Part shown: positions 1,814 through 22,983 of the stretch, piece after piece
Layout: every line of letters starts with the position of its first letter
Position numbering within the stretch: position 1 is the first letter of the stretch
IMG/VR virus record: IMGVR_UViG_3300016472_000451
Location: 1 to 30,421 of that record
Direction: 5' to 3' (one strand)
DNA length: 30,421 bases
Source: a virus
Taxonomy: Duplodnaviria > Caudoviricetes
Notes under the pieces: generated by a model
Told to the model about the DNA's origin: nothing
Database searches by the model: none
What the model saw: only the letters and a program-made list of their open reading frames with translations
Position numbers and translations under genes: made by a program

Positions 1814-1820
1814 TATATAA

Positions 1821-1843: not shown

Positions 1844-1863
1844 AATATTAAGGTAAAAGGTGT

Positions 1864-2397: not shown

Positions 2398-2398
2398 T

Positions 2399-4228
2399 AT
2401 GGATGACGAAATTTACAAACCCCCAACGCTTGGCCTTCCTCCATTAGGAGGAGGTGGTGAAGGCGGAATTATTGAGCTAGCCATGGTAAATGGATCAGAT
2501 GTATTTGCCCAGATTGTTTCCGGCTCCCAAGAAATTAACGCTGAAACAATATCTTTAACGCCATCTGCTCCTGTATATTTATACGAAATAGACTTTGGAG
2601 AAATATATCCTCAAACTAAAAATATTACAGCGATTAATCAACCTTTAACTAATGGAGTATTAAGAATATATAATGATTACAATATATTTAATTCTGCGGC
2701 AATTAGAGGAAGAGTAACATGGCAAGGAAATCATTATTATCCATTCCCAATAGCAGCAGAAGGATTTGATTTAAATTCTGCAGGAACACTACCGACTCCA
2801 AGATTTGTGCTTGCAAATATAAGTCCTGACGATGATAATAATTCTTTTTATAAATATATAAGAATGCAAATACAATCATTAGGAGATTTGGCGGGATGTA
2901 AATTTACTAGAATTAAAACATTTTTAAAATATTTGCATCCCAGTAATTTTTCAAATAATCAAAATCCGTACAATATCAATGGTAGGCTTTTTGAGCTTGA
3001 ACTACCTAAAGATGTCTATTATATAGATAGAAAAAGTCTAGAAAATAAAACTAGCATAGAATATTCGCTAAGCTCAATATTAGATTTAGAAAATGTTAAC
3101 TTGCCCGCAAGAACTTTCTTAGCTGAAAAGTGCCCTTTTCAATATCGAGGAGAAGGTTGTTGTTATGAATATAACAAAAGGAAAACAAATCAACATAGTG
3201 GAGTTTATGGAGGATGTGAAAATGTACCAGAAAGCTATATTTCCCTTCCTTTAGAAGCGCCACCAGTGACTACAGATAATGATGAAATTTTTCTAGAACA
3301 AGTTTTTACTGGTAGTTTATCTAATGGATGGCCAGATAATTTTAGATTTAGCGGTATAGCATATTCAAGAATAACTAGTCCAACATTAACAAATTCTAAT
3401 TTTACTAATTTTAGTCAAGCTAATTTACTAGACAGCAGTTACGCAGCGGTTGGCGCAACATCATCCGCAGCGATATGTAGCATATCGGTTGCTCTTACTA
3501 ATCCTGCAGAAATAACAGCTGTAAGAATTAATTCTTCCACATCAATAGTAAATAATTTTAATGTTGACTACTCTATGGACGGAGGGTCAACCTGGAATCC
3601 AGTTATTGACCGATCTGGGGCGCCTAGAGATTGGGTTCTTAATGGTCGTCCAGCAGGAACATATTCTTCTGGATGGCATAGCGTCGGCTTCCATAAGGAT
3701 TGGAGAATAAGGACTACTAATTCTGCAGCTGGGACAAATTTAACCGAACTTGAATTTAGCGGTCAATATAGAATTGGGGATAGCGGCGTTTGGGGGCTGG
3801 GAAATCTTTATTCAAGAGGAGAATTTATATATTTAGAAAAATTAGGAATAAAATATTATTATGTTTGTTTATCTGGACACACGTCTAGCCCATTTAATGC
3901 TCCTCCTAATAAAATCTTTTGGGGTAGCGATCATTGCTCAAAAAGCATTTGGTCTTGTAGGAAAAGATGGCAGTTAAATCCATATTTTAGACCAGTTTTA
4001 TGGCCATTAAATCGTGGGGGTTGGGATAGGGAATATACAAGATTGATGTTAAATAATTATAATTTAGCATATACTGGTCCAGAAGACAGTTTATCGTGGC
4101 CAAGAAGACCACACGTTATGAATCCATTTAATGATAAAGCTTGGGGTCTTCCGAAGGATCTTACTGGGCAATATTTAAATGGATTTTTACCATTTGGAGG
4201 ATTTCCTGGCGCAAATAGAAGGACATAA
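2399..4228 (+). CDS. gpL: Lambda gpL-like tail tip protein (Fe-S cysteine motif) with large insertion
   Basis: VYLYEID, VTWQGNHYYPFPIAAEGF, GTLPTP, GCKFTRIKTFLKYL, YYIDRK, CPFQYRGEGC, DHCSKSIWSCRKR and terminal LPFGGFPG are gpL hallmarks. Confidence 0.9.
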   Translation: MDDEIYKPPTLGLPPLGGGGEGGIIELAMVNGSDVFAQIVSGSQEINAETISLTPSAPVYLYEIDFGEIYPQTKNITAINQPLTNGVLRIYNDYNIFNSAAIRGRVTWQGNHYYPFPIAAEGFDLNSAGTLPTPRFVLANISPDDDNNSFYKYIRMQIQSLGDLAGCKFTRIKTFLKYLHPSNFSNNQNPYNINGRLFELELPKDVYYIDRKSLENKTSIEYSLSSILDLENVNLPARTFLAEKCPFQYRGEGCCYEYNKRKTNQHSGVYGGCENVPESYISLPLEAPPVTTDNDEIFLEQVFTGSLSNGWPDNFRFSGIAYSRITSPTLTNSNFTNFSQANLLDSSYAAVGATSSAAICSISVALTNPAEITAVRINSSTSIVNNFNVDYSMDGGSTWNPVIDRSGAPRDWVLNGRPAGTYSSGWHSVGFHKDWRIRTTNSAAGTNLTELEFSGQYRIGDSGVWGLGNLYSRGEFIYLEKLGIKYYYVCLSGHTSSPFNAPPNKIFWGSDHCSKSIWSCRKRWQLNPYFRPVLWPLNRGGWDREYTRLMLNNYNLAYTGPEDSLSWPRRPHVMNPFNDKAWGLPKDLTGQYLNGFLPFGGFPGANRRT

Positions 4229-4229
4229 T

Positions 4230-4580
4230 ATGTTAGATTTAAATTTAAAAAATTTTATAATAAATCACGCAAAGGAGTCTTTCCCTAAAGAATGCTGTGG
4301 ATTTGTTATTGAAAATAAAGATAAAATATTAGAATGTATATCTGTAAAGAATATATCAAATCAAAAAGATCATTTTATTATTGATCCAATCGATTATCTT
4401 AATATAAAATATAATTTTAATATAAAATATATGTATCATAGCCATAAATTTGAAGAAAATTTTTCTGTGCTAGATATAAATTGTGCAAAACATTTAATTT
4501 TAGATTTAATTGTTTATATTATTGATAAAGATATGTTTAAAATCTATAAATATAAAACTGGAGAAATAGTTTATGGTTAA
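4230..4580 (+). CDS. gpK: gpK-like tail assembly protein, JAB/MPN domain only
   Basis: HAKESFPKECCGFVI and YHSH.....FS..D (JAMM motif), located between L and I. I prefer ATG 4230 (1 nt after the gpL stop) to the track's 4179 start. Confidence 0.82.
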   Translation: MLDLNLKNFIINHAKESFPKECCGFVIENKDKILECISVKNISNQKDHFIIDPIDYLNIKYNFNIKYMYHSHKFEENFSVLDINCAKHLILDLIVYIIDKDMFKIYKYKTGEIVYG

Positions 4581-5682: not shown

Positions 5683-5684
5683 TT

Positions 5685-8600: not shown

Positions 8601-9509
8601 ACTTTCGTTAATTACTATAGCGGAACAAATTTAATACGTCAGGCTTATAGGCCGTACAAAGAAGGAAGCGGAAGATTGTATTTTGATTCTGCCTTTTACA
8701 GTATTGACGCAGGTTTAAGTGGAATGCGATTTGGTACATATGCTTTAGATGATATTGATTATAGATTAAATTCTAATTCTGTTTGGACCATACAAATAAG
8801 CACTAGTGGAGATTATGGAGGAGCTTTACAAGGAATTTATAATAGATATCCATCAGAAGTTCCAGGCAATCTACTTTATGATGGATGGTATCTAGAAAAA
8901 AATATTGATGAAGCAAAAATGTATAGAATCATAAATGCTACAGAAAAATCAAATAATATATTTAATATTTCTTGCGTGGAATATAATCCAGCAAAATATG
9001 CAGATATAGACACTGGAGTATCTTTGATTTCTGTTCCAGATAGAGCTCCGAATCCAAGACAACCATTGATCGGTATGAGTATATTATTTAGGAATCAAAC
9101 TGGTCACAATAGCGCTGGTGGGGCTGTGTACAATACATATCAAACAAAAGGTTTAAATAGTATTTACTATCAAATAACTGGTGGCGGAAGTGGTCCAGAT
9201 GGAACAGGTATTGTATCTTTATATAAATTATATGTTTCTAGTGGAGCGAGAAGATTCGCTCCCGAATCTGGATTAAAGCCGCCAGAAGAAGACCTATTAG
9301 CAGTATATACATCCAGGTTACCAGGCACAACATATAACCCAAGCAATACTCCTCCATTTTTTACACCACTTAGAACAGGAGATTATTTCTATGCGCTATA
9401 TGCTTATAACTCTGCTAATGAAACTTCTGTCCCAGGCACAGGAGTAATACAATTAGCGCAACAAACAATTCCAGAAGTAATTATTGGAAGTGGAGTCAAT
9501 GTATTATGA
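5685..9509 (+). CDS. gpJ: Lambda gpJ-like tip attachment / central tail protein
   Basis: ILDLISEGPIEG, KVKVPNNYDPIRKTYSGSWNGKFKLAWSDNPAWCYYDLVTNNRFGLG, EPRFTCNLY, FTYS...R...A.VRY, QARRLGKWFL.SE..ETETVTF and LRPGDIVKIVD. Confidence 0.92.
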   Translation: MPNVGGPNSVIEGLEKLDFPANYGNNFGGLEFPDSQAADYLGGRHTLQFSGKDSYGGNIDGPFPGDVSGHWGPVSVPYGLKGFIYGTKFSPATTAYESGWGRLLFSNYDLQVQYRAGCPNLRTDLQMPIQDSILAGYAGTSFTGTGFRTTDRSVTSVQRLNILDLISEGPIEGFVTGDYIYSTSGKKAGDIGYTSVLFSPFQVNTGQAPGQGAVEYWKATPESRSIFWNDTPIAAQKGFINFLYANYKYTYGDPNSHTISQPKINLYEERNHYDGERCDINKYPVVSSYTKLINEELYGGNFNAGPTSGYATPRRYYIYDTDIQAIKIHLKIKGLYTQVLTGARAGEYLREKLPVRFALYRLFSDRSEAFAQIDEPISTNPYLYAIDTVDYVGKVQVPTMVCYTFWMRSYKDSGYPLRVLPNQIGWVVHITKTVMEPMSLFTANAIEVSDIQCVYMDRFTYPQAAMVYSNFDSRYFSSVPERSYYVNLLKVKVPNNYDPIRKTYSGSWNGKFKLAWSDNPAWCYYDLVTNNRFGLGKYIDTSLVDKWSLYEAAQYCDQLVPNGNGGLEPRFTCNLYMANKAEAYKVLNDMASIFNAMPYYMAGQIFISQDRPKEPVYLFNNTNVVNGEFTYSDSSRKARRSVAMVRYNDEANNYKPALEYVEDKEAMMKYGIREVEVAAFGATRKSQARRLGKWFLASENLETETVTFDTSLEGGLLRPGDIVKIVDQNRQNKLYAGRAFDIDTGYAILDIPFNDFNRYILTGVNRSFTISFLTPSYNLYPGTTLGDNYLTGYKIASEDFSSGVNSNFYRKSHVQELYIQNTQQAITSGTENYSNFTRINFSGINTNKTNKYSLRYTSTINLTGNRYYKTTADGWGAPNGGEVYSLEGYRRNVFAEASPTRIDKYVMFGLNRDPGTDAGYTSLDYAWYYTNNGTLSIFENGTQITGPDFVGRSLPTIMSYTPSTALRVDYDGTFVNYYSGTNLIRQAYRPYKEGSGRLYFDSAFYSIDAGLSGMRFGTYALDDIDYRLNSNSVWTIQISTSGDYGGALQGIYNRYPSEVPGNLLYDGWYLEKNIDEAKMYRIINATEKSNNIFNISCVEYNPAKYADIDTGVSLISVPDRAPNPRQPLIGMSILFRNQTGHNSAGGAVYNTYQTKGLNSIYYQITGGGSGPDGTGIVSLYKLYVSSGARRFAPESGLKPPEEDLLAVYTSRLPGTTYNPSNTPPFFTPLRTGDYFYALYAYNSANETSVPGTGVIQLAQQTIPEVIIGSGVNVL

Positions 9510-10429
9510 TAGATATTTTTAAAACAAATCAAAAAGATATAACTATTTCGTGGGACTCGCAAAGAAAACTGCCTCAAGGAATTATGGGGGAAGGTATAGC
9601 TAAAAATTTTCCGTCTTTTAACGTTAAGATCCTAGATGAAAATTTAAATGATCTATATATTTATGAAAATATACCTTCTGCAGAACAAATTGGGGTAATA
9701 TCTAAAGCAAGTTATTCAGCTAAAGAAAAATTTATTCGAGAAAACCCAGCGGTCGTTTTTACCAGTCCAAGAGTTCAGGCTTCGATCTTTGATGTGCAAG
9801 ATTTTATAAAAAATAGTTTTACATTTTCTATAGAAGAGAACGGTAGAATTTTTTTTGAAAAAAATAATAAATATGGATTTTATAAAAAAGTACATATATT
9901 AATATCTCACAATGACTACGCCAGGAATTCTTATGAATGCCTCGTTGAATACGAAGATCCAGTCTTATTGGATTTTCAACAGGCTACAGAAAAGATTTAT
10001 AGAAGTACAGATGGGCTAAGTATTAAATTTAAATTTGATCCATTAAAATTTGAAAGTTCTAAGGTAGCCGCTATTTTAATTCTAGCGAAGTCAAATAATA
10101 TAATGTTATCCCCATTATTTTCTAAAGACTTACCTTCTAAATGGTTAAACTCAATAGAAAATTCAAAGATTTTGACTTTACCCTTCAAAGAGACCGGATT
10201 ATTAGAAGACATAGATTTATTAGATATCGAGCTATACGGACTATCTCCAAGCCAGTCTGTAGTAGTTGAAGAAATTTTAAAACAAAATAATTTAACTATA
10301 TTAAAAGAATTTTTAGATAGCTTTGTAAGCTGTAAGATTATTGATTCAATAAATAAAGTTAATCCTAGCGCTATAGAAATTCAAGAATTAAAAGAACGTT
10401 TAGCTCGTTTAGAGCAAGAAAATATTTAA
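9506..10429 (+). CDS. Hypothetical protein, probably tail-associated
   Basis: 307-aa ORF coupled to gpJ by an ATGA overlap; short C-terminal coiled coil (EIQELKERLARLEQ). Confidence 0.7.
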   Translation: MIDIFKTNQKDITISWDSQRKLPQGIMGEGIAKNFPSFNVKILDENLNDLYIYENIPSAEQIGVISKASYSAKEKFIRENPAVVFTSPRVQASIFDVQDFIKNSFTFSIEENGRIFFEKNNKYGFYKKVHILISHNDYARNSYECLVEYEDPVLLDFQQATEKIYRSTDGLSIKFKFDPLKFESSKVAAILILAKSNNIMLSPLFSKDLPSKWLNSIENSKILTLPFKETGLLEDIDLLDIELYGLSPSQSVVVEEILKQNNLTILKEFLDSFVSCKIIDSINKVNPSAIEIQELKERLARLEQENI

Positions 10430-10434: not shown

Positions 10435-13400
10435 TCATCTTCTTAATAGGCCGCCGATCCTCTGCTGTTCATTTATTATCTTAAGAACTTCGGTTCTAAT
10501 TTTTTCTGCCATATTTTTATTTTTATTTATTTCTGCGTTAAGAGACGGCCCAGTATTGCTTGGTCCCGTCACAATAGGAGAATCTACAGTTACAGATGAT
10601 TGGGCTGGTTGACCAGGAGAAACATTAATATTTATATTAACATTATTTACTATACTCGTATTATCATTAACTGAAGTTTCTACTGGTTTAGCATCAACTC
10701 TAAAATCTGCCATAGATGGATATCTTTTATCTTCTTCTACTATGCCTAAACGACTCTCTGGTAATCCAACCATACCACCTTCTGCAAATTTTGGTATAGA
10801 ACCGCTATTTAATTTATCAAAAAATGAAGAGCCGTAAGAATTTACCGCATCTTTATTGATAACATATTCTCCTTCCATTAATAAAGCTGGGACATTATCT
10901 TTTTCGCCTCCTAATGGAGATCCTTTAGCTCTTTTTACTATAGATGAACCACGAGGCAATCTTGTTCCTCCCATGTCTTGGCTCATCAAGTTAAGCCCAG
11001 CTCCAATAATTCCTTTTGGAGAAGGCTGGCTAACTCCTCCCATAGCCTCACTCATAAGATTTAATCCAGCGCCGATTATATTTTTTCTGGGAGAAATACT
11101 TCTTTTGTATATTCTATTTAATGGTTCTTGACCAGAACTACCCTCCGCAAGTGAGTTCAATTCTCGTTCAATTTTATTTATAAATTTAGGTTTAGTTTTC
11201 TCTCCCGCAGATTCTCTCGTAGGTATCTGACCTCTGTTTAACTTATCAAAAAAATCTTCACCATAATATTTAACTGCTTTTGGATGAATTATATATTCTC
11301 CACCCATTAAAAGAGCAGGTATAGATTCTTTATTTTCTCCTCCTGAAGCAAAAGAAGGAATGCGTCCGCCACGAGCTCTTCTTAAATCAGGTTTTGTGTA
11401 TCTAAATTTATTTCCAAAATTTGGGGCAGGTTGAGCTTTATTTGATCCCAAGCTTGTAGAAGATCCATATTTATCGTAATTTTGCGCTTTCCCAGTATTA
11501 AATAATCTATCCCACATAGATAAACCTGTATTTCCACCAAAACCAAAAGCGCTACTCAGAGCAGGGATAGCATATGTAGAAAGTAATCCAGCCCCTACAA
11601 TTCCTCCGGCTTGAACTAAGCCACCCAAGAGCTGACTTTTTCTTTGTTGATTAAACGCATCTCTTTGAGCTTTATTAATTTGGTCAATCATAGCCTTCCT
11701 TTGCGCATTTTCTTCATTTACCCTAGCTTCTTCTTCTCTATTCCTTTCTGCAAGGTCAACAGCCTCAGCTAAATAACTTTGTAAATTATCATATCTTGCC
11801 CTTAATACATCTCTTTGAGGATTATTTTCGTCATAAAGCGCCGCAGCAGATAATTGAGGATCAATCTCAAATCTTCCACTCGTAGGTCTAAAAGTATCAT
11901 TATAAACAAAATTTGCCTTGCCCTCATAAGAAAACTCTCCGCCAGTATTTATATTTTCTCCAGGTAATTCTGTGGTATAAGGACCAGCTAACCTTAACGC
12001 TTCCTCAGCTTCTATTTCTGCTACGGAAGGGCCACGCCTACTACCCATTCCAAAAGTTAAATTAGGATCTCCTCCAATAGACGAAGGCTTTAATCTACCT
12101 CCTTCTGCAAATTTTGGCATTGCTCCCTGATTTAATTTATTTAAAAAATCTTTTCCGTATTTATTAACTGCAGATTTACGAATAACATATTCTCCACCAG
12201 TCAAAAATGTAAGTATATCATCTTTATATCCTGATCCTCCTTCGACTTCGCCTCCATAAGCATATTTTTTAACTTCCCCACCATAACCAAATTTTGCTAG
12301 ACCTCCAGAACCAAATTTAAATAAATCCCCTAATCCAAATCCTCGAGTAATGCTAGAGAATATTTGATTTGTCGCAGCTTCCAAGGCTAATTGTTGTATT
12401 CTTCTAGCGATATTTAATGCCATATTTCTAAAAGCGTCTTCTGCAGTTTGAGAATTGTCTACTATACTTTGAAAAGCGTTAGCGAATTCAGATTTTATTG
12501 TTCTTGCAGTATCAATCGCCCCAGTTTGTAAATCTCTATATAAATCTTCAGTTCTATAATCAAATTCTGTAAAAAATGCGTCGCCTACATCGAGAGCCTT
12601 TCTACCATCAGAAACAGCTTTACCAGACAATAATCTCTGTTCTCTTTGCTGCTGCCTTTCTTGCTTGTATTGGTCTGCAAACATCAGACCTTGATCTCTT
12701 TTAGACTTAGTTTTTTCGCTTTCGATTAAGGCTAATAAAGCATTTCTATATTGATCTTCCGTAATTATTCTTTGTTTAACTTTTTCAGCGAGAATTCTTT
12801 CCTGTTCCGCAATTTGTTGAGAAACCCTATCTCTTTCGTCTTGATTTAGAATTTCCATATTTAATTGTCTAAGTTGTTTTTCGTAATCTTGCCCTAATAA
12901 TAAGTCTGGAGCCATTTCATTCTGTCCAACTTTTTGTATATATCTTCTTATCTCTTCAGAATTTAATTTACTAATTCCTTGCATATCTGCTCTATATCTC
13001 TCTATAAAATCTTGGGTAGTTTCAATAGTATTAAATATTTCTTCCGTCAGCTTACTAGCTCCAGCCTTAGTCTTCTTTAACTCATTTACAACAAATCTTA
13101 CTCCTGCATTTAAATCTCCAGAACTAATAGCTACTTTCACAGCTTCTTTAGCAACATTTTCAAATTCTGGTGCGACTTTCCCATCTACGTCTGTATATAA
13201 TTTTTTAATAATATCTACAAAAGTTTCTAATTGTTGACCAGCTTTCTTTGCGTCATCAGCAAGCATTTGCGCTTCTTTATAAGCTTCAGAAGCTCCAGTT
13301 TCTAAAATGCCTTGTTTCCCTTGAAGGAAAGCTAAAGTATCTGCAGCCTGACTTTTAGCGTAATCCAAATTACCGCCTGTTTCTACCGTTATTCCAGCGC

Positions 13401-16400
13401 CCTTGGCTGTAGATGGCTTATTTAATGTATCTTCTGCATCTTTAATCATGCTCTTAACAAATTGTTTAGCCCATTCTAAAGTTCCTTCTTGACCTTGTAA
13501 TTGTCGAGCCATAGTAATTTGACCTTGAGAATCTACCGTGGTCTGCATTGGGCCTAAAGCTCGAAGATTTACTGGCCTTGTATTTTTTGAAAGTTCTGAT
13601 AAATTATTTAAATCTGTAATAACTTCGTCGATTTTTCTTCTTCCTTCTTCTGTTTTAGCTAAATTAGTGGTATAACGAAGCCCTGTTTGCTTACTCCTCA
13701 CATCTATAAGACTTTTAGCAAACTCCTCTGCTTCTGCCTTACTTTTAATTCCGCCAGATTGCTTTAATCCTTCGAAATATGCTTCTAAATTTTTTTCTTG
13801 AATCTCTGCTGCGCCTTGGGCAAAGCTTTCAGCAAGAAGTCCTCCTAATTCTTCAAATCTACCACTCTTTATTTTTTCTAAAATTCCAGCTTGCAATTGC
13901 TCAGGAAAAACAGATACGCTGTCTACAATTTTTTCATATAGCAAATCTAAATTTGCCTGTTTAACATCTGGCTCCCCCTTCATTGAGAGAGTTCTTCTAT
14001 ATTGTTCTACTAAAGGCATTATTTGCTGTGTGGCTCCTTGCCTTTGATTAAATCTATCTTGAAGTATTCCAAGCTCTTTATTTAATAGATCATATCTCTC
14101 TCTTCTCGTCATCTCATTTTCTTGACTTTTACCTATTTTATATCCTCCGTAAGCCCCTGCGCCTCCGCCGAGCAATGGTAAAAATGGTGCAATAGCTCTA
14201 AGCTGAGGAACAACACGGGCAAGCGGGGCAAGCATAGACCCCGCAGAGGAGCCTAAAAAACCATAGGTTGTAGCTTGAGATAATGTGTTATATCCTGCTT
14301 GAGTTTTTGCATCTTGACTATCAAATTGCGCAGCAGTTTGAATTAATGTTGGAGCTAAAAATGACATAGTTAAAACAGTAGTTTCTAGCTTACTATTTAG
14401 TTTCTCTAGTTTACTTCCAAAATTATTCATTGCGGAAGCCGCTTTACTTGCGCTATTTACAACAGAAGCAGATGATTGTTGCTCGGCTAGGCTCCCTGTT
14501 GTTTCAGTTTGTTTTATAAATCTTCCGGTACTTGGATCTCTAACGCTATATTTGGCAAAATTGGGCACAAACCCTTTATTAAAAGAAGATTGTAAAATTT
14601 TTGAATTTTTAATTGCTTTTCTAATACCTTCGGGATGGTCTTTTTTAACATCGCTAAAATTCTTTTGCGTAGAACCATCCCTTACATATAGACCAATACC
14701 TTTTTGAAGATCTAATACGGGCTTTCCTCCCATCGCCACTTCTGCCTCAATAGCTTTTTGTAAATCTGCAAAGTTAGGTATAAAGCCATTAAATCTACTT
14801 TTTGTCTTAGATGCATTTTCTATTGGGTTTTCGAACTTGTGTATTTTTTTCGCCATGCTATTTAAATTTCCATCAGATAAAGAATTTTTTAAATCTGCAT
14901 ATACCGTGGTCCCAAATCCTCCGTATGGTAATTTAAACCTTTTTTGGATTCTGCCTAATTCACCAGAGTCTAGATCAAAATTAGCTATTTCACTTAATGT
15001 AATAGAACTTATGGAAGCTTTTATTCCTGCTTCGAAAATTTGCCCTAAAGAAGACTCTACGGCGCTTCTGCTTAAATTAGACTGAATATTACTTTTAAAT
15101 CTATTTGTATCAACAATTTGAGGCTTTGTTATTAAACCTCTAAAGTAATTTGAAGATAAATCAATTAAATTTCTTCTTACATCTTCATATAATTTTTCAT
15201 TTATATCGAAATTCGATCCAGGGAAAGGATAGGTTTTGAATCTATAAATTCTTCGATTTTTTGATGCATCAGCCGTATATCCGGCAGAAACATTTGGGGT
15301 AGATTGAGAAAAAGAAGGGAAAACTAAACCATAAGTTGAATATGGTCTTTTATTAGAAAACCCTCCTGCTCCCATTTCTGATTTTAATGCTGCAGCTCTA
15401 GCGGCAGCTTTACCTTCTTCCGTCCTTTTAAATTGACTTGTTAAACCTGTCTTATACCTTTGGTCTATAAACGCTACTTCATCTTTCGTTCCTTTGTATA
15501 AATATTTAATAGCATCTTTTGGAATTCCAGATTTTAAAGCAACCGCAGCCTCATCGCTAGAAATAGATACAAACCCTTTTTTAGCGTATTGCTGTTGAAT
15601 ATATCTCTGAAGAGGTAATCCACTTAAAGAAGCAAAATTCGGAATGAACCCATCACTTTTATATGGGTCAAAACCTAATCTATCTGTAAAATTAGTTTTA
15701 TATCTTTTACCAGCTCTACTATTCTCTGGCGGTATAATTGCAGGTTGCGATGCGCCAGGAAATTTTTTTACTTGTTCAGCCGTGTTATAGATGACTTTTC
15801 CTTCTCCAGGGATATACATCTCTTTAATATTTCCTGGTACATATCCGCCAGCAAGTGCCCCATAAATTTCAGGGATATAACCTTCACTTTTTGTTTTTGT
15901 TGTTAGCATACCTCCACGAGATACGGTAACCCCTCTAGACATTAAATTGCCTGATAATTGAGATGCTATCGCCGCCGATCTTTGCCTTTCCAAAGTTTGA
16001 GATTTTATAACACTTAATATTTGATTTTCTACTTGTAATAGACTTGTTTGCTTAGATAATATTGATGCGACTAATTGAGGCTCTTTAGATAATACTTCTA
16101 ATATTCTTGTTTGTATTAATGATCTCTGTTCAGAAGCTTTATTTAGACTTAGCAAGCTTTTGAGCGAATCCAAAGCAAACTTGCCTAAATTTAAAAATAA
16201 TTTACCTAAAACTGCAGTTAGCAATATAACTCCTGGGCCCGCTATAAAAGTGCCTATACCATCAACAATGCCTTTTCCAATTTTACCTCCCGTGGTAGAT
16301 GTATCTAAAGATATATTTTCTAGCCCCTTATTTGCAAGATTTAATAAATTAGAAATCGTAGGCTTAAAAGCTGTTTCGCCAACTTCAGCTCCAACACGAG

Positions 16401-17505
16401 TAATATTTGCTAATGTTTTATTTAATAAAGCAGATACAGTCTCATTTAATTCTTGATTTCTTTTAATCGCTTCGTCCGTCGAAGTATTTGCAACATCTAA
16501 TGCGTTTTGATAAATAGAATATTCTTTTGATAAATCTCCTAAAGCTGCTTTCAAAATATTAATTTGGAATACTCCACCGACTTGTTCTGCGATCGCAGAT
16601 CTTTGCGAATCGCCTAAATTATCAAACCTTTTAGCTAATTCTTCTAATATTTTAAGTGCAGGTAATGTATTTCCTTCCAAATCTTTTACTTGTATACCTA
16701 ATCCCTGTAAAGCGTCTAAAGTGTCTTGTCTTTGTATTCTCGTAAATATAGTTTTTAATGAATTTCCAATAACTGCACCACCTCGAGCAGTTGTTTGTTG
16801 TACGCTAGTAACTATCGCTAAAAGTTCATCGAAGCTAACTCCTGCATCTAACGCACTACTTCCTACTCGCTGTATTGCATTTGCTAAGTCTGCAGAACTT
16901 ACAGCAAAAGCAGCGTCAACATTCGCTAATTTATTAATTACCTCAGTTGAGGTTAAGCCCACTTTACTAAAACTATTGACCGCTGCGGTCAAAGCTTCTA
17001 CGCTACTTACAGTATCTAAACCGCTTAATCTTGTAAGAATTAAAGCATCATTTGTTCTTTTTAATGTTTCTTCTACGCTTAAACCTTGGCGAGCGAATTC
17101 TGTTGCCGCAGAAGCAACTTCTTTGAAAGTTTGACCAGTATTTTTTGCAACCTCAAATAACTGATTGCTAAAAGACTTTAGCGTTCCTTCGCTAGCATTT
17201 AAGATAACATTTATATCCTTTAATGATTTTTCTACTTCTATTGTAGTACGTATTAAATCTGTAAAAGACTTTTGAACCGCATATATAATACCTGCGCTTG
17301 CGCCGAAAGCAATAACTCTAGCGTTAGATGCGTCTAATGATTTTTGAAATTCGCTGGTTGCCCCAGTTATTCTTCCTAATGGTTGGGTAAATGCCTTTTC
17401 GTTAAATCCTTTTAACTTAAAGTCTTTGGATAAGGCAATTTGAATATCTCTTTCTAATTGCCTTGTATCTGCGCTTACAGGGATTGTAGCTGTAGTTCTT
17501 GCCAT
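10435..17505 (-). CDS. Tail tape measure protein (TP901-type N-terminal domain, lambda gpH-like C-terminus)
   Basis: 2356 aa. N-terminal TMP core (EVASAATEFARQG, KLANVDAAFAVSSADLANAIQRVGS, GGAVIGNSLKTIFTRI) and C-terminal FAxGG / PALL.GEYVI modules ending NNVNININV...INEQQRIGGLL. Lies downstream of tube and chaperone genes. Confidence 0.93.
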   Translation of the reverse strand: MARTTATIPVSADTRQLERDIQIALSKDFKLKGFNEKAFTQPLGRITGATSEFQKSLDASNARVIAFGASAGIIYAVQKSFTDLIRTTIEVEKSLKDINVILNASEGTLKSFSNQLFEVAKNTGQTFKEVASAATEFARQGLSVEETLKRTNDALILTRLSGLDTVSSVEALTAAVNSFSKVGLTSTEVINKLANVDAAFAVSSADLANAIQRVGSSALDAGVSFDELLAIVTSVQQTTARGGAVIGNSLKTIFTRIQRQDTLDALQGLGIQVKDLEGNTLPALKILEELAKRFDNLGDSQRSAIAEQVGGVFQINILKAALGDLSKEYSIYQNALDVANTSTDEAIKRNQELNETVSALLNKTLANITRVGAEVGETAFKPTISNLLNLANKGLENISLDTSTTGGKIGKGIVDGIGTFIAGPGVILLTAVLGKLFLNLGKFALDSLKSLLSLNKASEQRSLIQTRILEVLSKEPQLVASILSKQTSLLQVENQILSVIKSQTLERQRSAAIASQLSGNLMSRGVTVSRGGMLTTKTKSEGYIPEIYGALAGGYVPGNIKEMYIPGEGKVIYNTAEQVKKFPGASQPAIIPPENSRAGKRYKTNFTDRLGFDPYKSDGFIPNFASLSGLPLQRYIQQQYAKKGFVSISSDEAAVALKSGIPKDAIKYLYKGTKDEVAFIDQRYKTGLTSQFKRTEEGKAAARAAALKSEMGAGGFSNKRPYSTYGLVFPSFSQSTPNVSAGYTADASKNRRIYRFKTYPFPGSNFDINEKLYEDVRRNLIDLSSNYFRGLITKPQIVDTNRFKSNIQSNLSRSAVESSLGQIFEAGIKASISSITLSEIANFDLDSGELGRIQKRFKLPYGGFGTTVYADLKNSLSDGNLNSMAKKIHKFENPIENASKTKSRFNGFIPNFADLQKAIEAEVAMGGKPVLDLQKGIGLYVRDGSTQKNFSDVKKDHPEGIRKAIKNSKILQSSFNKGFVPNFAKYSVRDPSTGRFIKQTETTGSLAEQQSSASVVNSASKAASAMNNFGSKLEKLNSKLETTVLTMSFLAPTLIQTAAQFDSQDAKTQAGYNTLSQATTYGFLGSSAGSMLAPLARVVPQLRAIAPFLPLLGGGAGAYGGYKIGKSQENEMTRRERYDLLNKELGILQDRFNQRQGATQQIMPLVEQYRRTLSMKGEPDVKQANLDLLYEKIVDSVSVFPEQLQAGILEKIKSGRFEELGGLLAESFAQGAAEIQEKNLEAYFEGLKQSGGIKSKAEAEEFAKSLIDVRSKQTGLRYTTNLAKTEEGRRKIDEVITDLNNLSELSKNTRPVNLRALGPMQTTVDSQGQITMARQLQGQEGTLEWAKQFVKSMIKDAEDTLNKPSTAKGAGITVETGGNLDYAKSQAADTLAFLQGKQGILETGASEAYKEAQMLADDAKKAGQQLETFVDIIKKLYTDVDGKVAPEFENVAKEAVKVAISSGDLNAGVRFVVNELKKTKAGASKLTEEIFNTIETTQDFIERYRADMQGISKLNSEEIRRYIQKVGQNEMAPDLLLGQDYEKQLRQLNMEILNQDERDRVSQQIAEQERILAEKVKQRIITEDQYRNALLALIESEKTKSKRDQGLMFADQYKQERQQQREQRLLSGKAVSDGRKALDVGDAFFTEFDYRTEDLYRDLQTGAIDTARTIKSEFANAFQSIVDNSQTAEDAFRNMALNIARRIQQLALEAATNQIFSSITRGFGLGDLFKFGSGGLAKFGYGGEVKKYAYGGEVEGGSGYKDDILTFLTGGEYVIRKSAVNKYGKDFLNKLNQGAMPKFAEGGRLKPSSIGGDPNLTFGMGSRRGPSVAEIEAEEALRLAGPYTTELPGENINTGGEFSYEGKANFVYNDTFRPTSGRFEIDPQLSAAALYDENNPQRDVLRARYDNLQSYLAEAVDLAERNREEEARVNEENAQRKAMIDQINKAQRDAFNQQRKSQLLGGLVQAGGIVGAGLLSTYAIPALSSAFGFGGNTGLSMWDRLFNTGKAQNYDKYGSSTSLGSNKAQPAPNFGNKFRYTKPDLRRARGGRIPSFASGGENKESIPALLMGGEYIIHPKAVKYYGEDFFDKLNRGQIPTRESAGEKTKPKFINKIERELNSLAEGSSGQEPLNRIYKRSISPRKNIIGAGLNLMSEAMGGVSQPSPKGIIGAGLNLMSQDMGGTRLPRGSSIVKRAKGSPLGGEKDNVPALLMEGEYVINKDAVNSYGSSFFDKLNSGSIPKFAEGGMVGLPESRLGIVEEDKRYPSMADFRVDAKPVETSVNDNTSIVNNVNININVSPGQPAQSSVTVDSPIVTGPSNTGPSLNAEINKNKNMAEKIRTEVLKIINEQQRIGGLLRR
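10774..12225 (-). repeat. Three dispersed ~40-aa repeats in the TMP (K.xIPALLxGGEYVI.K.AV..YG..FFDKLN.G.IPKFAEGG)
   Basis: Copies at about 12097-12225, 11221-11331 and 10774-10902 in the translation. Confidence 0.85.
14554..15651 (-). repeat. GF(I/V)PNFA peptide motif x3 in the TMP
   Basis: Copies at 15631-15651, 14767-14787 and 14554-14574, plus a degenerate GYIP at 15871-15882. Confidence 0.85.
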
Positions 17506-17533
17506 AATTCCTTATTCCTAACCTATAATAATA

Positions 17534-17539
17534 TTACAC
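17534..17539 (-). promoter_or_regulatory. Putative late promoter GTGTAA upstream of the TMP
   Basis: GTGTAA-TATTATTAT-AGGTTAGGAATAAGGAATT-ATG in the intergenic gap. Confidence 0.65.
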
Positions 17540-17555
17540 AATATATTGATTTATA

Positions 17556-18566
17556 TTATAATTTATGAAGCTTTATAAAATCTTCCATAGATAATGTCCC
17601 ACCATGTTTCTTGGCTATATCTTGCAGACTAATACCTTCTTGATTTTTTGATATCTTCGCCACATCTTCTTTAGATGCCCCTACGATAGAAGTCGCAATA
17701 AAATCTTGATTTTTCTTATTTTTATTTGAAGATTTATTCATAATCTCTTCCGCATTTCTTGCGCTTTCTAGCCATTCTATTAAAAGTTCTGGATCTTCAA
17801 AAGCTTCTGGCGGGGGTTTATGTTTAGCGTCAGATAATTCATGTCTAAAATATCTTGCGTGGTTATACACTTCAATTTGATAGTATGTTAAATCTATAAC
17901 TGGTTTTCCATATAAATTATATATATTCTCATTACATACATTATACAAATTTAAATAATACGAAGATAAAGCTATCTTCTTTAAAGATATAGAAGAAAAA
18001 TCTTGCACTCTTATATTATAAATTTGAGTTAATTGGTCTATGTCTTCTTTACTAAGGTTTTCATAATCTTCTTCGGAAAAGAACTTCTCTTTTAAGTCAT
18101 CTTTTTTAAACAAAGAACAAAATATAAAATATTCATTTACTTTTTTATTAGCATGATCTTCTGCCGTGTAGCCAATCAGCTCATTCTTTTCTATTAAAAT
18201 TTGATTTAATTTAAACTGTTCTTTTGAGATTTCTTTTTTAAAGAAATCAACATCTGTCTGTCTGAAGGCTTTAGATTTACTTATTTTTAAATTAGAAATT
18301 AAATTTTTTAATTTATTGATTTCTTCATTCTTTTTATCTGTCCATAGATTTTCTTTTAAAAGATATGCTTCTTTTTCATCTTTTGTGGGCAAACCTTTAC
18401 TCTGTGCCTCGTTAAAATATAAATATTTTTTATGTTCAACTTCTATATTGTCAATAATATTTAAATGTTTTAAATATAAAACGCTATTTAGATATTTCGT
18501 GGAGGAGAAACCTTTTATGACATCTCCAAATAAAATCCTTATTTTTTCTTTATCAATGCTTTTCAA
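17556..18566 (-). CDS. Putative tail assembly chaperone (pre-TMP protein)
   Basis: 336-aa charged, helical-looking ORF directly upstream of the TMP, with TTG start and upstream AAGGAAG. Function inferred from position only. Confidence 0.55.
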   Translation of the reverse strand: MKSIDKEKIRILFGDVIKGFSSTKYLNSVLYLKHLNIIDNIEVEHKKYLYFNEAQSKGLPTKDEKEAYLLKENLWTDKKNEEINKLKNLISNLKISKSKAFRQTDVDFFKKEISKEQFKLNQILIEKNELIGYTAEDHANKKVNEYFIFCSLFKKDDLKEKFFSEEDYENLSKEDIDQLTQIYNIRVQDFSSISLKKIALSSYYLNLYNVCNENIYNLYGKPVIDLTYYQIEVYNHARYFRHELSDAKHKPPPEAFEDPELLIEWLESARNAEEIMNKSSNKNKKNQDFIATSIVGASKEDVAKISKNQEGISLQDIAKKHGGTLSMEDFIKLHKL

Positions 18567-19320
18567 TTGCGGGCTCTTCCTTAACTGGAGAAATAACCCT
18601 TAAAAGATTATCAAATTCTTCTTTAATAGAAGCCCTTCCCATATACCAAAAGCTAATTAAATATACCAGCTTTTGGATAGCCTTCTTCTCAAACTCTAGA
18701 TCTTTATCTTCGATATCATCATAAACTTCTAGCCTTTCTCTATAAGATCCTTCTCCAAATAAAGATTTTGGAGAACCATTTTCCTCGATGTAACTTAAAT
18801 TTAATAACCACCAAATAATTGTTTTATTTCTTGCTCGATTTTCTGCGGTCTGTTCAAAAAGGCTAGATTGAGTTATTTCAAAATTTTGTATTTTTTCTCT
18901 AACGTTCTCAATATCCTGCATTAATAATTTTAGTTGCGCCTGTTCTTCTTCCGTTCTTTTATCCTTATCAACCATAGATATCTTTTGGAATTCATTTTGT
19001 AATTCAAAAAGTTTTACATATGATCCCGAATATTCCACTTGTTCTTCATCACTAAATACACCACCATCATTATTTATTCTTTTAGCTAAAAGAGCTCTAG
19101 TTAATAAACCAGACTTAATTCCTTCCGATAATGTAACGCCATAGAATAATTCTGCTTCATCGAAAAGGTTACGGGTTGGTTTTTTAATAATAACCCTGAT
19201 GGGCTCATTCTTTTTAACTTTTTTAATTGTTTTAATTTCTTCGCCATGCTCATTTTTTGAGACTTCGGCTTCTTCTACTTCAACTTCTTTATTAATAAAA
19301 AAACTATATAATTCCTTCAT
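18553..19320 (-). CDS. Putative tail assembly chaperone
   Basis: 255-aa acidic coiled-coil ORF between tube and TMP. Function inferred from position only. Confidence 0.55.
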   Translation of the reverse strand: MKELYSFFINKEVEVEEAEVSKNEHGEEIKTIKKVKKNEPIRVIIKKPTRNLFDEAELFYGVTLSEGIKSGLLTRALLAKRINNDGGVFSDEEQVEYSGSYVKLFELQNEFQKISMVDKDKRTEEEQAQLKLLMQDIENVREKIQNFEITQSSLFEQTAENRARNKTIIWWLLNLSYIEENGSPKSLFGEGSYRERLEVYDDIEDKDLEFEKKAIQKLVYLISFWYMGRASIKEEFDNLLRVISPVKEEPAIEKH

Positions 19321-19580
19321 ATTTTATTATCCTTTATTAGTATATTGCTATATAAGTCCTTGACTTTTTTAGAAAAAATTTTACCACCAATTATTTTATA
19401 AAACTTTTCTTTTTTTTCTTCAGGCCAAACTTTATATACATTGATAAACTGTTTACTTGTTATCGCATCGTAATTAAAATTAAATATCTTAAAATCTTTA
19501 GATAAAACTCTCTGGTTGGTTGGCATAGTTAAATTGCCTATTATAATTTGGTCTACGGAAAGATTTAATTTTCTCTTCAT
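19317..19580 (-). CDS. Hypothetical protein
   Basis: 87-aa ORF with ATGA overlaps at both ends. Confidence 0.7.
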   Translation of the reverse strand: MKRKLNLSVDQIIIGNLTMPTNQRVLSKDFKIFNFNYDAITSKQFINVYKVWPEEKKEKFYKIIGGKIFSKKVKDLYSNILIKDNKI

Positions 19581-19807
19581 TTTACTTTTATATCTAAATT
19601 ATTAAAATATTCCTCTATTTCCCTAATTGCATCATTAGCGTTATCCAATATTCTCTTGCGGATTTTTTGATAGGTTTCATCGTTTATATTATATCCAGAA
19701 TCAGAAAGATCTTCTAGGATAAAAAAGAAATTTTTATATATATTTGTTATTTTTCTTTTTACCTGAAAAAGAGCTAGCTCTTTTATTTTTTCATTATTTA
19801 ATTCCAT
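19577..19807 (-). CDS. Hypothetical protein
   Basis: 76-aa ORF preceded by the GTGTAA motif and AAGGT repeats. Confidence 0.75.
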   Translation of the reverse strand: MELNNEKIKELALFQVKRKITNIYKNFFFILEDLSDSGYNINDETYQKIRKRILDNANDAIREIEEYFNNLDIKVK

Positions 19808-19838
19808 ACCTTTTTTAAACCTTTTACCTTAATAAGGT

Positions 19839-19844
19839 TTACAC
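19839..19844 (-). promoter_or_regulatory. Putative late promoter GTGTAA
   Basis: GTGTAA-ACCTTATTA-AGGTAAAAGGT..., directly after the terminator T-tract. Confidence 0.6.
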
Positions 19845-19874
19845 AAAAAAACCCCCGAAAATCGGGGGTTTTTT
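19845..19874 (-). terminator. Rho-independent terminator after the major tail tube gene (bidirectional geometry)
   Basis: A7-CCCCCGA-AAA-TCGGGGG-T6, 16 nt after the tube stop codon. Confidence 0.9.
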
Positions 19875-19890
19875 ATATTTTAATGTATTA

Positions 19891-21033
19891 TTAGACTAAT
19901 CCACTAATAAATAGTCCATTATTTTTATCTTCTGGACCACCAATCTGTGAACTAAAGTTTAATGTTACAGTTTTATTGCTGCCTATATCAGAGCTATATT
20001 CTTGACTATCGAGCTTAGCATTCTTCAAAGAAAATCTGGCTACAGCATCATCTGTTCCAGGTTTCTTTATGGTAATAACTGGGTTATAGCTTGTAGATGC
20101 ATCATTATCTACAAGATTAGCTAGATTACCAGAAGTCATATCGGTTACTTGAGCGTCTAGGCTTAGGTTGACCGTTAATGGAAAGTCGATTTCTCTAGCA
20201 AAAGCAAATCTACTTCCAAGTTTTTCAATAGGAGTACGAGCCAAATCAAAACTTAAGGTATAACTTTGAATATTGAATTGATTGTCCCCACTAGAAGTTG
20301 CGCCGATTACGCTTGGCAGACTGAATGTAATATCCCCTGGACGAAGAACACTTATTCCGCTGGAGATATTATTTGTATTATTGTTTTGTTCAGCATGAGG
20401 AAGCGAGAACAAACGGTTGGCAATAATCTTACCATCTGTTGGATTAATTGCTGGCAACTGTCTTCCGCTCGCTTCGGTATCGAACTTCATATTTAAACCT
20501 TCTACGCTAACAGAGGCTGTTGGGAAATTTCCTACAGAAGCTTCTTGAGAGTAAGAAGTGATAAAGCCATTGCCTATACTAATTACGCCAACTTGATTAG
20601 CTGTGTTCGCAACTGCATCAGTACCTTCAGCTGTAGTTTTAATAAAGTAGTTCCTCTCATCTTGACTTTTATTCAAAATTCCAGAGATGCAACTTACTTC
20701 TGCGCTTGGAGTTCCTCCAGCACCAGTTTTTTGTATAGTAAACCCAAGTAGTTCTTCGTTTGCTAGATTAGCAAAAAGATAGTTGAAATCTAACGAAACC
20801 GTTGGGCTTGTTAAAACTACGCGATCTATAGCAGCTAATTGGCCGAACTGATTTACATCTGTACGATCAATATTAAAACTATAATTAGCAGTTTGAACTC
20901 TTTGGATTTGTTCTACGAGATTAACATCGCCTGATACGTTTGTGTTTGCACCGCCTTGGAAATGAGCACCTGTAGCAGGGCAAGGACCTGCGTAAAGGGC
21001 TTCTGACTGATAAATTATTCTATTTCTTGCCAT
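19891..21033 (-). CDS. Major tail tube protein (internally duplicated tube fold)
   Basis: 380 aa. Has its own promoter motif, GGAG RBS and strong terminator, lies between neck genes and chaperones/TMP, and contains two similar beta-rich halves. Confidence 0.8.
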   Translation of the reverse strand: MARNRIIYQSEALYAGPCPATGAHFQGGANTNVSGDVNLVEQIQRVQTANYSFNIDRTDVNQFGQLAAIDRVVLTSPTVSLDFNYLFANLANEELLGFTIQKTGAGGTPSAEVSCISGILNKSQDERNYFIKTTAEGTDAVANTANQVGVISIGNGFITSYSQEASVGNFPTASVSVEGLNMKFDTEASGRQLPAINPTDGKIIANRLFSLPHAEQNNNTNNISSGISVLRPGDITFSLPSVIGATSSGDNQFNIQSYTLSFDLARTPIEKLGSRFAFAREIDFPLTVNLSLDAQVTDMTSGNLANLVDNDASTSYNPVITIKKPGTDDAVARFSLKNAKLDSQEYSSDIGSNKTVTLNFSSQIGGPEDKNNGLFISGLV

Positions 21034-21058
21034 ATTAATTATTCTCCATTTATTATTA

Positions 21059-21064
21059 TTACAC
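21059..21064 (-). promoter_or_regulatory. Putative late promoter GTGTAA upstream of the tube gene
   Basis: GTGTAA-TAATAATAA-ATGGAGAATAATTAAT-ATG. Confidence 0.65.
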
Positions 21065-21090
21065 TTTAATTATGAGCTTTTCTATTTTTT

Positions 21091-21954
21091 TTATATTCTA
21101 GGGTATCTATTTTTACTTAATTCAAAATCAATAAATGCGGTAAATACATTAGGGTTTAATTTATTATAACTATTAATAAATCTATTGTCTATCTTAGATA
21201 CATATACATTATCTATATGAAGATAATCATCATTTTGTAGCTTATTTACTGTTAAATTATTGTAGTTAAAAGAGCCATTATTAGCACTTCCTAGTATATT
21301 AAATGGCATCTCATTCTCATAAATTAAAGGTATATAACTCCTTACTGTATCTCGGAATATACTCGTCAAGGCATCTAATTTAAATATACTATCAGATAAT
21401 ACAATAGCTCTAACATTTATATTAGTTTTATCTAATCCTCCAAAAGCAAGAGGCTCATTATCTCCTCCTTGATATTTAAGGTATACAACTGGATAAGTCT
21501 CAGCATTTAAAGGTAACCCTGTTGGATTTTGAGATGTTTTTGGATTTAATTGAAACTGAGTTTCAAACAATAAATCTTCTTCAGTTTCACTTGTAAGAAA
21601 TATATTGAAATCTTTTACAGCGTAATTTCCACTTAAAGATGTGCTTGGATTATTTATTTGAGATGTAAAATAAAGATGTCCCTGAGAAGAATTTATTCCA
21701 GTTAAACTATTTTCTCCAATCTTAGAAAAAATATTATTTATATAAACTCCGCTTATAATATTTGCTCCGGAAATTGAACTATCAACAACCATTTGCTTGT
21801 ATGGGGCGCCATATGTATAGAATCCAAAATATTGAGACTCTACTGGATAAAAATTACTTGAAAAGTTAACAAAAGCCTCTCCTTTTGATAACAATTTATT
21901 ATCAAACCATAAAAGTATACTTGACATTACAATATTATTAAACTGTACTTTCAT
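21091..21954 (-). CDS. Putative tail terminator / neck protein
   Basis: 287 aa, immediately upstream of the tube gene. YPVVYL...EPLAFGG.....INVRAIVLSDS.F.LD.L.SIFRD is compatible with a terminator fold. Mostly synteny. Confidence 0.55.
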   Translation of the reverse strand: MKVQFNNIVMSSILLWFDNKLLSKGEAFVNFSSNFYPVESQYFGFYTYGAPYKQMVVDSSISGANIISGVYINNIFSKIGENSLTGINSSQGHLYFTSQINNPSTSLSGNYAVKDFNIFLTSETEEDLLFETQFQLNPKTSQNPTGLPLNAETYPVVYLKYQGGDNEPLAFGGLDKTNINVRAIVLSDSIFKLDALTSIFRDTVRSYIPLIYENEMPFNILGSANNGSFNYNNLTVNKLQNDDYLHIDNVYVSKIDNRFINSYNKLNPNVFTAFIDFELSKNRYPRI

Positions 21955-22541
21955 ATTTTAAAATTCTTTAAAAAATTAATGTATACCTGGCTTAAATACG
22001 ATCTAGGCTTAAAATTAGATTTTCGAATTTTATTTTTAGATTGTATTGCTTTTCCTGATCTACTTTCTTGAAATATTAATCCATATAAGTAATTACTAAA
22101 CCCAGAAATTCCCTTCTCTATGCCTTTAACCCAACTTTTACCACCTTCGAATGGCATTGGAGTTTCTTGGTATATTTCCTCTAAAGAAGGAGTAAACACT
22201 GAAAAATTAAATATTCCATTTTTTACGTTCTTAAATTTAATAAAGGTATTATTTTTTATTAAAATCTTTATTTTATTAATAGGATTGTCTGATTTCTCAA
22301 ACCCTATAAATGAAAATAGATTACCTTCACCGTCTAAGGTCCTGCTAATATTTGCTGCGCTTGGACCATCTAAAATTTCTTGAGAAACAGGATGATTTTC
22401 AATTTGATTTATATATTTTTCTTTTTTTATTTCGATTGCCTCAGTTGCTATAATTTCCGCATTTTTAATTATAGAGCCATTCTTTTCAAGAGCTTGATTT
22501 ATATTTTGTTTCAATAAATTTTTATTAATTTTCGCTCTCAT
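21951..22541 (-). CDS. Putative tail completion / neck protein
   Basis: 196-aa basic ORF in the usual HK97 gp10 / lambda Z slot. Synteny only. Confidence 0.45.
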   Translation of the reverse strand: MRAKINKNLLKQNINQALEKNGSIIKNAEIIATEAIEIKKEKYINQIENHPVSQEILDGPSAANISRTLDGEGNLFSFIGFEKSDNPINKIKILIKNNTFIKFKNVKNGIFNFSVFTPSLEEIYQETPMPFEGGKSWVKGIEKGISGFSNYLYGLIFQESRSGKAIQSKNKIRKSNFKPRSYLSQVYINFLKNFKI

Positions 22542-22981: not shown

Positions 22982-22983
22982 AA

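Follow-up and report, generated by a model that had tools for sequence, protein, structure and literature searches.

An exchangeable domain cassette fenced by GFIPNFA motifs in the tape measure protein of an uncultured freshwater phage

The virus record IMGVR_UViG_3300016472_000451 (the window, meaning the whole stretch of 30,421 nucleotides that was analyzed) is a contig that makes up the whole assembly of an uncultured freshwater phage, and it encodes a tape measure protein (TMP) of 2,356 residues. The protein has the features of a siphophage TMP, a TMP core matching PF10145 and a long helical chain. Behind the core, the chain is divided by copies of the motif GFIPNFA, and comparison with relatives leaves us nearly certain that the motif-fenced region is a swappable cassette. 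The explanation that we propose as a whole is that two fixed modules bracket exchangeable cargo, that the joints are cut between Phe and Ala (F↓A, the arrow marking a cut), and that the cargo enzymes are freed and enter the cytoplasm of the host before the DNA does; we give it a probability of about 0.5. TMPs are usually seen as rulers and channels, at most with a wall-degrading domain. The tests made here add a precisely delimited swap within this very gene, the fixed brackets (modules A and B), the sorting of enzymes into compartments, and a register that links the motif to the joints of the T5 and lambda TMPs. The features of the TMP gene up to the end of the cassette are as follows.

10435..17505, minus strand: TMP gene, 2,356 residues; matches PF10145 and many TMP families in PHROGs
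16573..17151, minus strand: TMP core domain PF10145, residues 119-311 (Pfam, E value 5.8e-32)
16192..16248, minus strand: hydrophobic, likely membrane segment ahead of the cassette, residues 420-438 (hydropathy peak 2.01)
15871..15882, minus strand: joint 1, truncated GYIP, residues 542-545; the NFA half is lost in the subclade of the window
15652..15870, minus strand: module A, the fixed N-side bracket, residues 546-618; predicted α/β, with conserved E546, N574, and E577
15631..15651, minus strand: joint 2, GFIPNFA, residues 619-625; predicted cut F624↓A625, swap breakpoint 15632
14788..15630, minus strand: cargo, residues 626-906; a variable N-terminal half and a domain with invariant G821, E825, D844, and K873, PD-(D/E)xK-like by motif
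14767..14787, minus strand: joint 3, GFIPNFA, residues 907-913; predicted cut F912↓A913, swap breakpoint 14788
14575..14766, minus strand: module B, the fixed C-side bracket, DHPEG subtype, residues 914-977; predicted α/β fold
14554..14574, minus strand: joint 4, GFVPNFA, residues 978-984; predicted cut F983↓A984

Layout and conservation of the cassette

The motifs at residues 542 (GYIP), 619, 907, and 978, with spacings of 77, 288, and 71 residues, had been pointed out in the initial annotation and were confirmed in the TMP open reading frame (ORF). From composition, 7.3e-6 copies of GF[IV]PNFA are expected per protein. When the TMP was shuffled 1,000 times, no 7-mer occurred three times, and a 7-mer occurred twice in 18 shuffles. 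Because the pattern was picked after being seen, conservation is a stronger test than these statistics. The GYIP at residue 542 is a genuine truncated copy, since the full motif stands there in most close relatives.

Using the N-terminal 626 residues of the TMP as a query, 27 viral loci were found, and each TMP in them carries multiple copies of the motif. A degenerate DNA scan for GFIPNFA led to an estimate of ~480 viral stretches; 48 of 53 distinct viral ORFs with long flanks match the core or the modules of the clade, and more than one motif is present in 82 of 127 distinct viral ORFs. As a control, only 2 of 120 bacterial or archaeal genome loci with a GFIPNFA frame contain more than one motif, and both match clade modules, being clade fragments. 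Modules of the clade are found in three of these 120 loci, two of which are 1-4-kb contigs in Proteobacteria bins, too weak to name a host. A profile of modules A and B with the motif matched 1,285 representatives at 50% identity. In the 150 representatives listed among these matches, to which the representative-level counts refer, the TMP core is present in 144, and the number of motifs per protein is 2-12. TMPs of the clade range in length from ~1,700 to >5,000 residues, the contigs that carry them reach 200 kb, and the best-matching runs are freshwater metagenomes, among which two are candidates for the origin of the window. Over 897 copies, the motif context is x-[AS]-x-G-[FYL]-[IV]-P-N-F-[AS], its inner positions being constrained by the search pattern, and position -2 is a small residue in 85%.

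The motif is conserved at the protein level and not as a DNA repeat. Were it a recombination repeat whose peptide reading is incidental, the breakpoints described below would fall at the motif, as they do, and identical codons are indeed slightly in excess among the copies within a gene (0.59, against 0.535 expected and 0.544 between genomes). Against this, all synonymous codons are used at the motif, and the three copies in the window share 6 of 19 codons where 10.5 are expected. This explanation is largely refuted, and its probability is negligible.

A layout of core, module A, variable cargo, and module B was present in each of the 43 TMPs with a core that a search by the DNA motif alone had retrieved. 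All three units between the motifs had at first been read as cargo. The middle unit is cargo, whereas the two short units are fixed brackets in 43 of 43 TMPs. A sequence pattern supposedly shared by the two short units was not significant (hhalign E values of 0.42 and 0.083). Both modules are predicted to open helix-strand-strand, and homology between them is unproven. Module A has no match in Pfam.

An AlphaFold2 model of residues 536-1002, based on a 71-row alignment, has a mean predicted local distance difference test (pLDDT) score of 82 and contains three mixed α/β units, so that the early description of the units as globular rather than helical holds as a prediction. The motifs lie in low-confidence coil and are predicted to be exposed. 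Foldseek searches with the whole cassette region against PDB and BFVD returned nothing at E ≤ 0.001; VIA gave a best Z score of 3.5, with module A barely covered, and matches to module A in the ESM Atlas scored no higher than 0.79. The fold searches are evidence neither for a novel fold nor for one that differs from the prediction.

Two subtypes of module B occur, DHPEG in the window and N..DEP.G in most of the relatives L002-L027 (hhalign probability 60%, E value 8.6e-5). Because both subtypes are scattered over the core tree, the bracket too may undergo exchange. In some TMPs of 3,200-4,000 residues (L063, L041, P0106, P0119, and P0120), additional A- and B-type modules are situated far downstream, and these look like second cassettes or repeated brackets. 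Outside the clade profiles, the TMP-like protein of L051 (ORF 2-4018) carries a GFIPNFA at residue 1120, near the C terminus, followed by an A/B-like stretch; it may connect the modules of the cassette with C-terminal modules of the ordinary kind.

Exchange of the cargo and the domains carried

Near-identical phages break at the motif. Relative P0030 is 98% identical to the window over the core and module A, 21% over the cargo, 92% over module B, and 97% after it. Relative P0012 carries additional units ahead of a cargo that it shares with the window. A contig from another study (run X6), 95-99% alike on both sides, has positions 14788 and 15632 of the window joined in frame by 789 other nucleotides, which stand in for the 843 of the window; the other three runs compared with the window provide short pieces only. 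The replacement is of nearly equal length (288 to 270 residues). Among 17 chosen pairs of relatives, several show the same pattern, with identities over core, module A, cargo, and module B of 98, 88, 25, and 97% (L007/L008) and 93, 92, 20, and 95% (L027/L007), and over core, cargo, and module B of 99, 24, and 87% (L013/L011). In five of six chosen pairs, nucleotide identity drops at both motifs from 44-56 of 60 positions outside to 15-23 of 60 inside, and the sixth pair (L006/L007) reveals a clean, exact insertion of one unit of 161 residues. The core and cargo trees are discordant over 16 rows, near-duplicates and two long TMPs having been left out.

Across the 150 representatives, 482 cargo units fall into 194 clusters, of which 129 are singletons, and the median unit is 210 residues long. 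The motif is thus conserved while the segments between copies vary in number and identity; collinear, invariant, and helical segments were not seen, and the idea of a module junction with swappable payloads is borne out. Recombination within the conserved arms of modules A and B is the probable origin of the swaps. The clade of 1,285 representatives has a precise slot inside the TMP for rapidly exchanged domains, and the cassette is a reservoir of ~190 mostly unannotated domain clusters.

The cargo of the window is most likely a nuclease, judged by its motif. PD-(D/E)xK nucleases are marked by a helix-borne Glu, followed by an Asp and then (D/E)-x-K. In 67 divergent rows with a mean column identity of 20%, G821, E825, D844, and K873 are invariant and Asp is the majority residue at 871; the selection of rows was anchored on the Gly and the Glu, and the Asp and Lys lie outside it. 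The domain is modeled with a pLDDT of 89; the Glu falls within a helix and the D-x-K within a strand. Using VIA, the C-terminal half of the cargo aligns with Bse634I (Z 2.9, root-mean-square deviation 6.6, 101 residues aligned) and Cfr10I (Z 2.9, root-mean-square deviation 6.5, 103 residues aligned), both tied with unrelated rows. For the domain alone, the best VIA score (Z 5.8) is on a 43-residue helical hairpin, with no nuclease among the 50 matches listed, and BFVD gave no match. No usable match to the cargo was obtained from the ESM Atlas. PHROGs gave one weak match to the 67 nuclease-like rows and little to 66 other units.

These observations bear on whether the inserts are filler that simply lengthens the tail, with enzyme-like motifs as relics. 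The wide range of TMP lengths and the lack of a library match for most units fit such a role. It is hardly credible in view of putative catalytic residues that are invariant at ~20% mean column identity, units that are predicted to fold confidently (pLDDT 89), and a swap from 288 to 270 residues that alters the content and hardly the length.

Among 120 cargo units, five exceed the Pfam cut-off, comprising three GNAT domains, one CTP_transf_like (cytidylyltransferase-like) domain, and one PcfJ; HATPase and ParB matches fall just under it, and whole-protein Pfam scans of the relatives add SNase. Profile searches against PDB with four units (the kinase-like A2, A4, and A5 and the HAD-like A7) gave nothing credible and did not confirm their labels. 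A grouping of four units resembling ADP-ribosyltransferase (ART) into one family was dropped because the alignment was poor. When stand-alone versions of the cargo were sought among proteins of 94-326 residues, a single protein of 166 residues on an 806-bp contig was found.

The enzyme types are sorted along the chain. The 12 glucosaminidase or L,D-transpeptidase domains present in 327 proteins are all situated after the last module B. Of the 339 cassette-type domains in the same proteins, 333 lie between the first A and the first B, one lies before a later B, five are uncalled, and none lies after the last B. The sequences are related and the seeds were taken from each compartment, so these counts describe a pattern and not independent trials. 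As a sequence pattern, it is shown that wall-acting enzymes follow module B, whereas the stretch from A to B is occupied by domains of nuclease-, GNAT-, and kinase-like and related kinds.

Nuclease-like (N-type) domains are the commonest cargo, with 216 in the 327 proteins. Together with the exact ends of the exchange, this would suit a selfish insert: A-nuclease-B would act like an intein or a homing element, spread by means of its nuclease, and be removed from the TMP after translation, with the other cargos riding along. Such an element is very unlikely here. There are no empty alleles, at least ~200 residues separating A and B in all 43 TMPs; GNAT, nucleotidyltransferase, and PcfJ domains are among the cargos; and modules and cargo vary independently. 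The Hint fold is all-β, unlike the predicted α/β modules A and B, and the window protein and the 120 units contain no Pfam match to Hint.

Joints and the question of cleavage

Additional joints of the form x↓A-x-G-G are found in the C-terminal part of the window TMP, at residues 1748, 1799, 2043, 2052, and 2240. The features of this part are as follows.

12097..12327, minus strand: C-terminal module 1, GE[YF]V type, with x↓A-x-G-G joints at residues 1748 and 1799; homologous to lambda gpH (E value 3.6e-5)
11221..11379, minus strand: compound joint R↓ARGG-RIPSF↓ASGG, residues 2043-2056, a bridging form, and C-terminal module 2
10774..10938, minus strand: C-terminal module 3 and joint IPKF↓AEGG, residues 2237-2244

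Through these joints the motif may be related to TMPs that are known to mature by cleavage. Maturation of pb2, the TMP of T5, yields pb2* and pb2C (Linares et al. bioRxiv 10.1101/2022.09.20.507954; PMC11937500; PMC11937520). In the pb2 record, the string NSFVPR↓AEGG at R1127 gives a fragment with a computed mass of 9,702, equal to the intact-mass value for T5 (PMC11937500), which supports R1127, and the cut string R↓AEGG has the form of the C-terminal joints of the window. The lambda TMP gpH is cleaved to gpH* and gpHC of ~78 and ~14 kDa, and both the cut site and the catalyst are stated to be unknown (PMC12617516). The GE[YF]V module of the window is present in gpH between F733-ATGG and Y778-ATGG (residues 733-782), with none of 500 shuffles as good as the observed match. 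This comparison predicts that gpH is cut at F733↓A734; the computed masses of 79.8 and 12.5 kDa are near those reported, and the lambda cleavage gap, which is decades old, thereby obtains a concrete prediction. An x↓A-x-G-G joint followed by a module, as a mark of maturation-cleaved TMPs, is thus present in the window; this mark is drawn from two phages and is not a published definition. The three C-terminal modules also recur in TMPs of cultured phages, Douge included (227 records match).

The register of GFIPNFA is shared by these joints. Among 586 C-terminal [FY][AS]xGG joints of the clade, Gly occupies position -5 in 73% and Ile or Val position -3 in 63%, compared with 12% for each at other Phe and Tyr residues. 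Compound forms account for 20% of the 586, and the window TMP itself contains an intermediate between GFIPNFA and the T5-type joint, RARGGRIPSFASGG. Because of the shared register, GFIPNFA looks like a condensed member of the x↓A-x-G-G family, which would place the cut at F↓A, as the initial annotation had suggested. Based on the sequence comparison, we slightly favor cleavage of the motif at this position. Cuts there would release pieces with computed masses of 31.9 kDa (residues 625-912) and 7.8 kDa (residues 913-983).

A tentative alternative is that the cargo is tethered and no cut occurs, the motif being a signal for binding or registering with a tail chaperone, the tube wall, or modules A and B. 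Once ejected, the TMP would be anchored in the inner membrane on both sides of the cassette, and the cargo would be a cytoplasmic loop at the point of DNA entry. Hydrophobic peaks in 230 relatives are arranged as this requires, since they lie within 250 residues ahead of the first motif in 206, behind the cassette in 163, on both sides in 147, and within the cassette in only 3. The motif also lacks the Gly-Gly seen in T5, degenerate first joints are frequent, and some polyvalent proteins are delivered uncut (PMC5512222). Against tethering stand the register match and the bridging form with a T5-type joint in the same protein, and a near-invariant P-N-F at up to 12 boundaries exceeds what a passive linker needs.

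The unit of 250 residues between C-terminal joints (residues 1800-2043; ~11380-12108, minus strand) contains a helical stretch and a hydrophobic segment at residues 1959-1977, and similar text is found in L002, L006, and L020. Wall enzymes lie in the joint-fenced C-terminal part of P0020 and P0026, which makes this part a second cargo compartment. Between C-terminal modules 2 and 3, at residues ~2135-2180, there is a short tandem duplication in which IIGAGLNLMS occurs twice. A resemblance of subtype g6 to T5 pb2C (reached by 3 of 500 shuffles, in 1 of 14 tests) was not trusted.

Proposed delivery, known systems, and gene neighborhood

In the proposed mechanism, one or more exchangeable domains, every one of them fenced by GFIPNFA, sit between modules A and B. 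The whole chain would run through the tail tube in unfolded form and serve as the ruler; in phage Douge, a TMP of 1,699 residues occupies a 269.6-nm tube with a 35-Å lumen (PMC13033339), which is too narrow for folded trimers. At the ~0.16 nm per residue derived from Douge, the window TMP would correspond to a tail of roughly 370 nm, provided that the cassette is part of the ruler. The chain would be cut at the joints once the tail is assembled, as happens to T5 pb2 and lambda gpH, and modules A and B (with the conserved Glu and Asn residues E546, N574, and E577), the JAB-domain tail protein described below, or a host enzyme are candidate proteases. TMPs are ejected C terminus first (PMC10713586; Linares et al. 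bioRxiv 10.1101/2022.09.20.507954), so that the wall enzymes would exit first, then the channel-forming coil, then module B, cargo, and module A, and then the DNA. The wall enzymes would reach the periplasm first, the coil would provide the channel, and the pieces of the cassette would precede the DNA into the cytoplasm. There, the cargo would refold and act on host nucleic acid, proteins, or nucleotides, in takeover or counter-defense. That the cargo is delivered and active in the host is likely. If true, this would be an early route for effectors or counter-defense proteins that bypasses the capsid. Should the joints indeed be cut, this arrangement offers a natural template for delivering proteins to bacteria.

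Several points weigh against this explanation. The first joint is strict in just 18 of 43 TMPs and truncated in the subclade of the window, so a full motif is not required at every boundary. GFIPNFA has no downstream GG (xGG follows 10 of 1,049 copies), and the upstream residues in T5 do not fit the pattern of G(-5)/I(-3), so that the motif is related to the T5 site only by way of the C-terminal joints. The T5 cut site is itself disputed between V1148 and R1127 (PMC11937520). The comparisons detected no homology linking modules A and B to pb2C of T5, to gpHC, or to the C-terminal module. Most cargo units are without a library match, and the kinase, HAD, ART, P-loop, and nuclease labels come from motif reading by eye. 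The post-cassette hydrophobic stretch of the window itself is below the threshold, the register counts, like those for sorting, come from related sequences, and the system is known from sequence alone.

A bolder version makes the tail ruler a programmed magazine of several effectors, in which modules A and B would be a new kind of self-processing protease that cuts every GFIPNFA, the cargo would be ordered by destination, with wall enzymes in front and cytoplasmic effectors at the end, and the same joint chemistry would explain the cleavage of lambda gpH (at F733↓A734) and T5 pb2. We regard this version as doubtful. If it were true, any domain placed between two joints would be injected.

By analogy, the window TMP may mature like T5 pb2 and lambda gpH. 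In T5, as proposed here, the TMP is cut during tail assembly and an enzyme-bearing piece is separated. However, pb2 has a single cut near the C terminus that frees a periplasmic piece of 92 residues, whereas the window TMP has four internal joints and ~7 in its C-terminal part, together with an internal cassette whose interchangeable cargo is predicted to be cytoplasmic. A tail tip of the lambda type (gpM, gpL, gpK, gpI, and gpJ) is present in the window; in contrast, gpH carries neither a known enzyme nor an internal cassette.

The window TMP may work in the manner of the polyvalent proteins of phages and conjugative elements (compared with PMC5512222 and PMC7824862), which carry many unrelated enzyme domains per chain, are mosaic, and are proposed to be injected early (PMC5512222). 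Their hallmark, at least two unrelated enzyme domains per chain in mosaic arrangement, is found in the clade, the window protein itself having one cargo unit, and GNAT, ART, and ParB-type domains recur in both. The polyvalent proteins differ in their MPTase, ArdC-N, and LPD hubs and proposed self-cleavage by the MPTase (PMC5512222), and the window TMP in being a structural ruler that contains brackets of its own and a short joint used repeatedly. Neither the window protein nor the 120 units match MPTase, ArdC-N, or LPD in Pfam, and an HEXXH peptidase was not found in the window TMP; HExxH-like strings were seen by eye in units of two relatives. The main text of Iyer et al. 2017 (PMC5512222) contains no mention of the tape measure.

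TMPs with fused peptidoglycan hydrolases are known (cited in PMC12617516), for example by the annotation of SPbeta YomI, and the clade relatives with glucosaminidase or L,D-transpeptidase in the C-terminal part resemble them. Those enzymes act on the wall, whereas the motif cassette is a separate, more N-terminal compartment with other enzyme types. In the open literature searched, no description of a TMP cassette or of a PNFA motif in tape measures was found.

The TMP operon (10435-30027, minus strand) converges with a tail-tip operon (1864-10429, plus strand), their last stop codons lying five bases apart (10429/10435). A lambda-type tail tip with gpM-, gpL-, gpK/JAB-, gpI-, and gpJ-like proteins occupies 1864-9509 on the plus strand, opposite to the TMP, whereas in lambda the tail-tip genes follow the TMP gene co-directionally. 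The protease candidate in this operon is the following.

4179..4580, plus strand: JAB-domain, gpK-like tail-tip protein (PF14464, E value 7.7e-7; E..HxH..S..D read by eye)

Its metal site appears intact by eye, and homologs are present in 26 loci, counted where the flank is long enough to include that position. The protein stands alone, without the NlpC/P60 half of lambda gpK, and adjoins a gene for a gpI-like tail assembly protein (4573-5682, plus strand) in which a long Gly/Ser-rich insert separates the N-terminal domain from the hydrophobic C-terminal part. No other ORF of the window contains PNFA, so a processing code shared by head and tail through this motif is not supported within the 30-kb contig.

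Upstream of the TMP gene, the tube and chaperone genes are without a library match and were placed by position alone. On the same strand, 23475-28025 encodes a Gly/Asn-rich, fiber-like protein of 1,516 residues with no Pfam or PHROG match, and 28057-28959 encodes a protein of 300 residues that is glycosyltransferase-like by eye and weakly matches phrog_8954.

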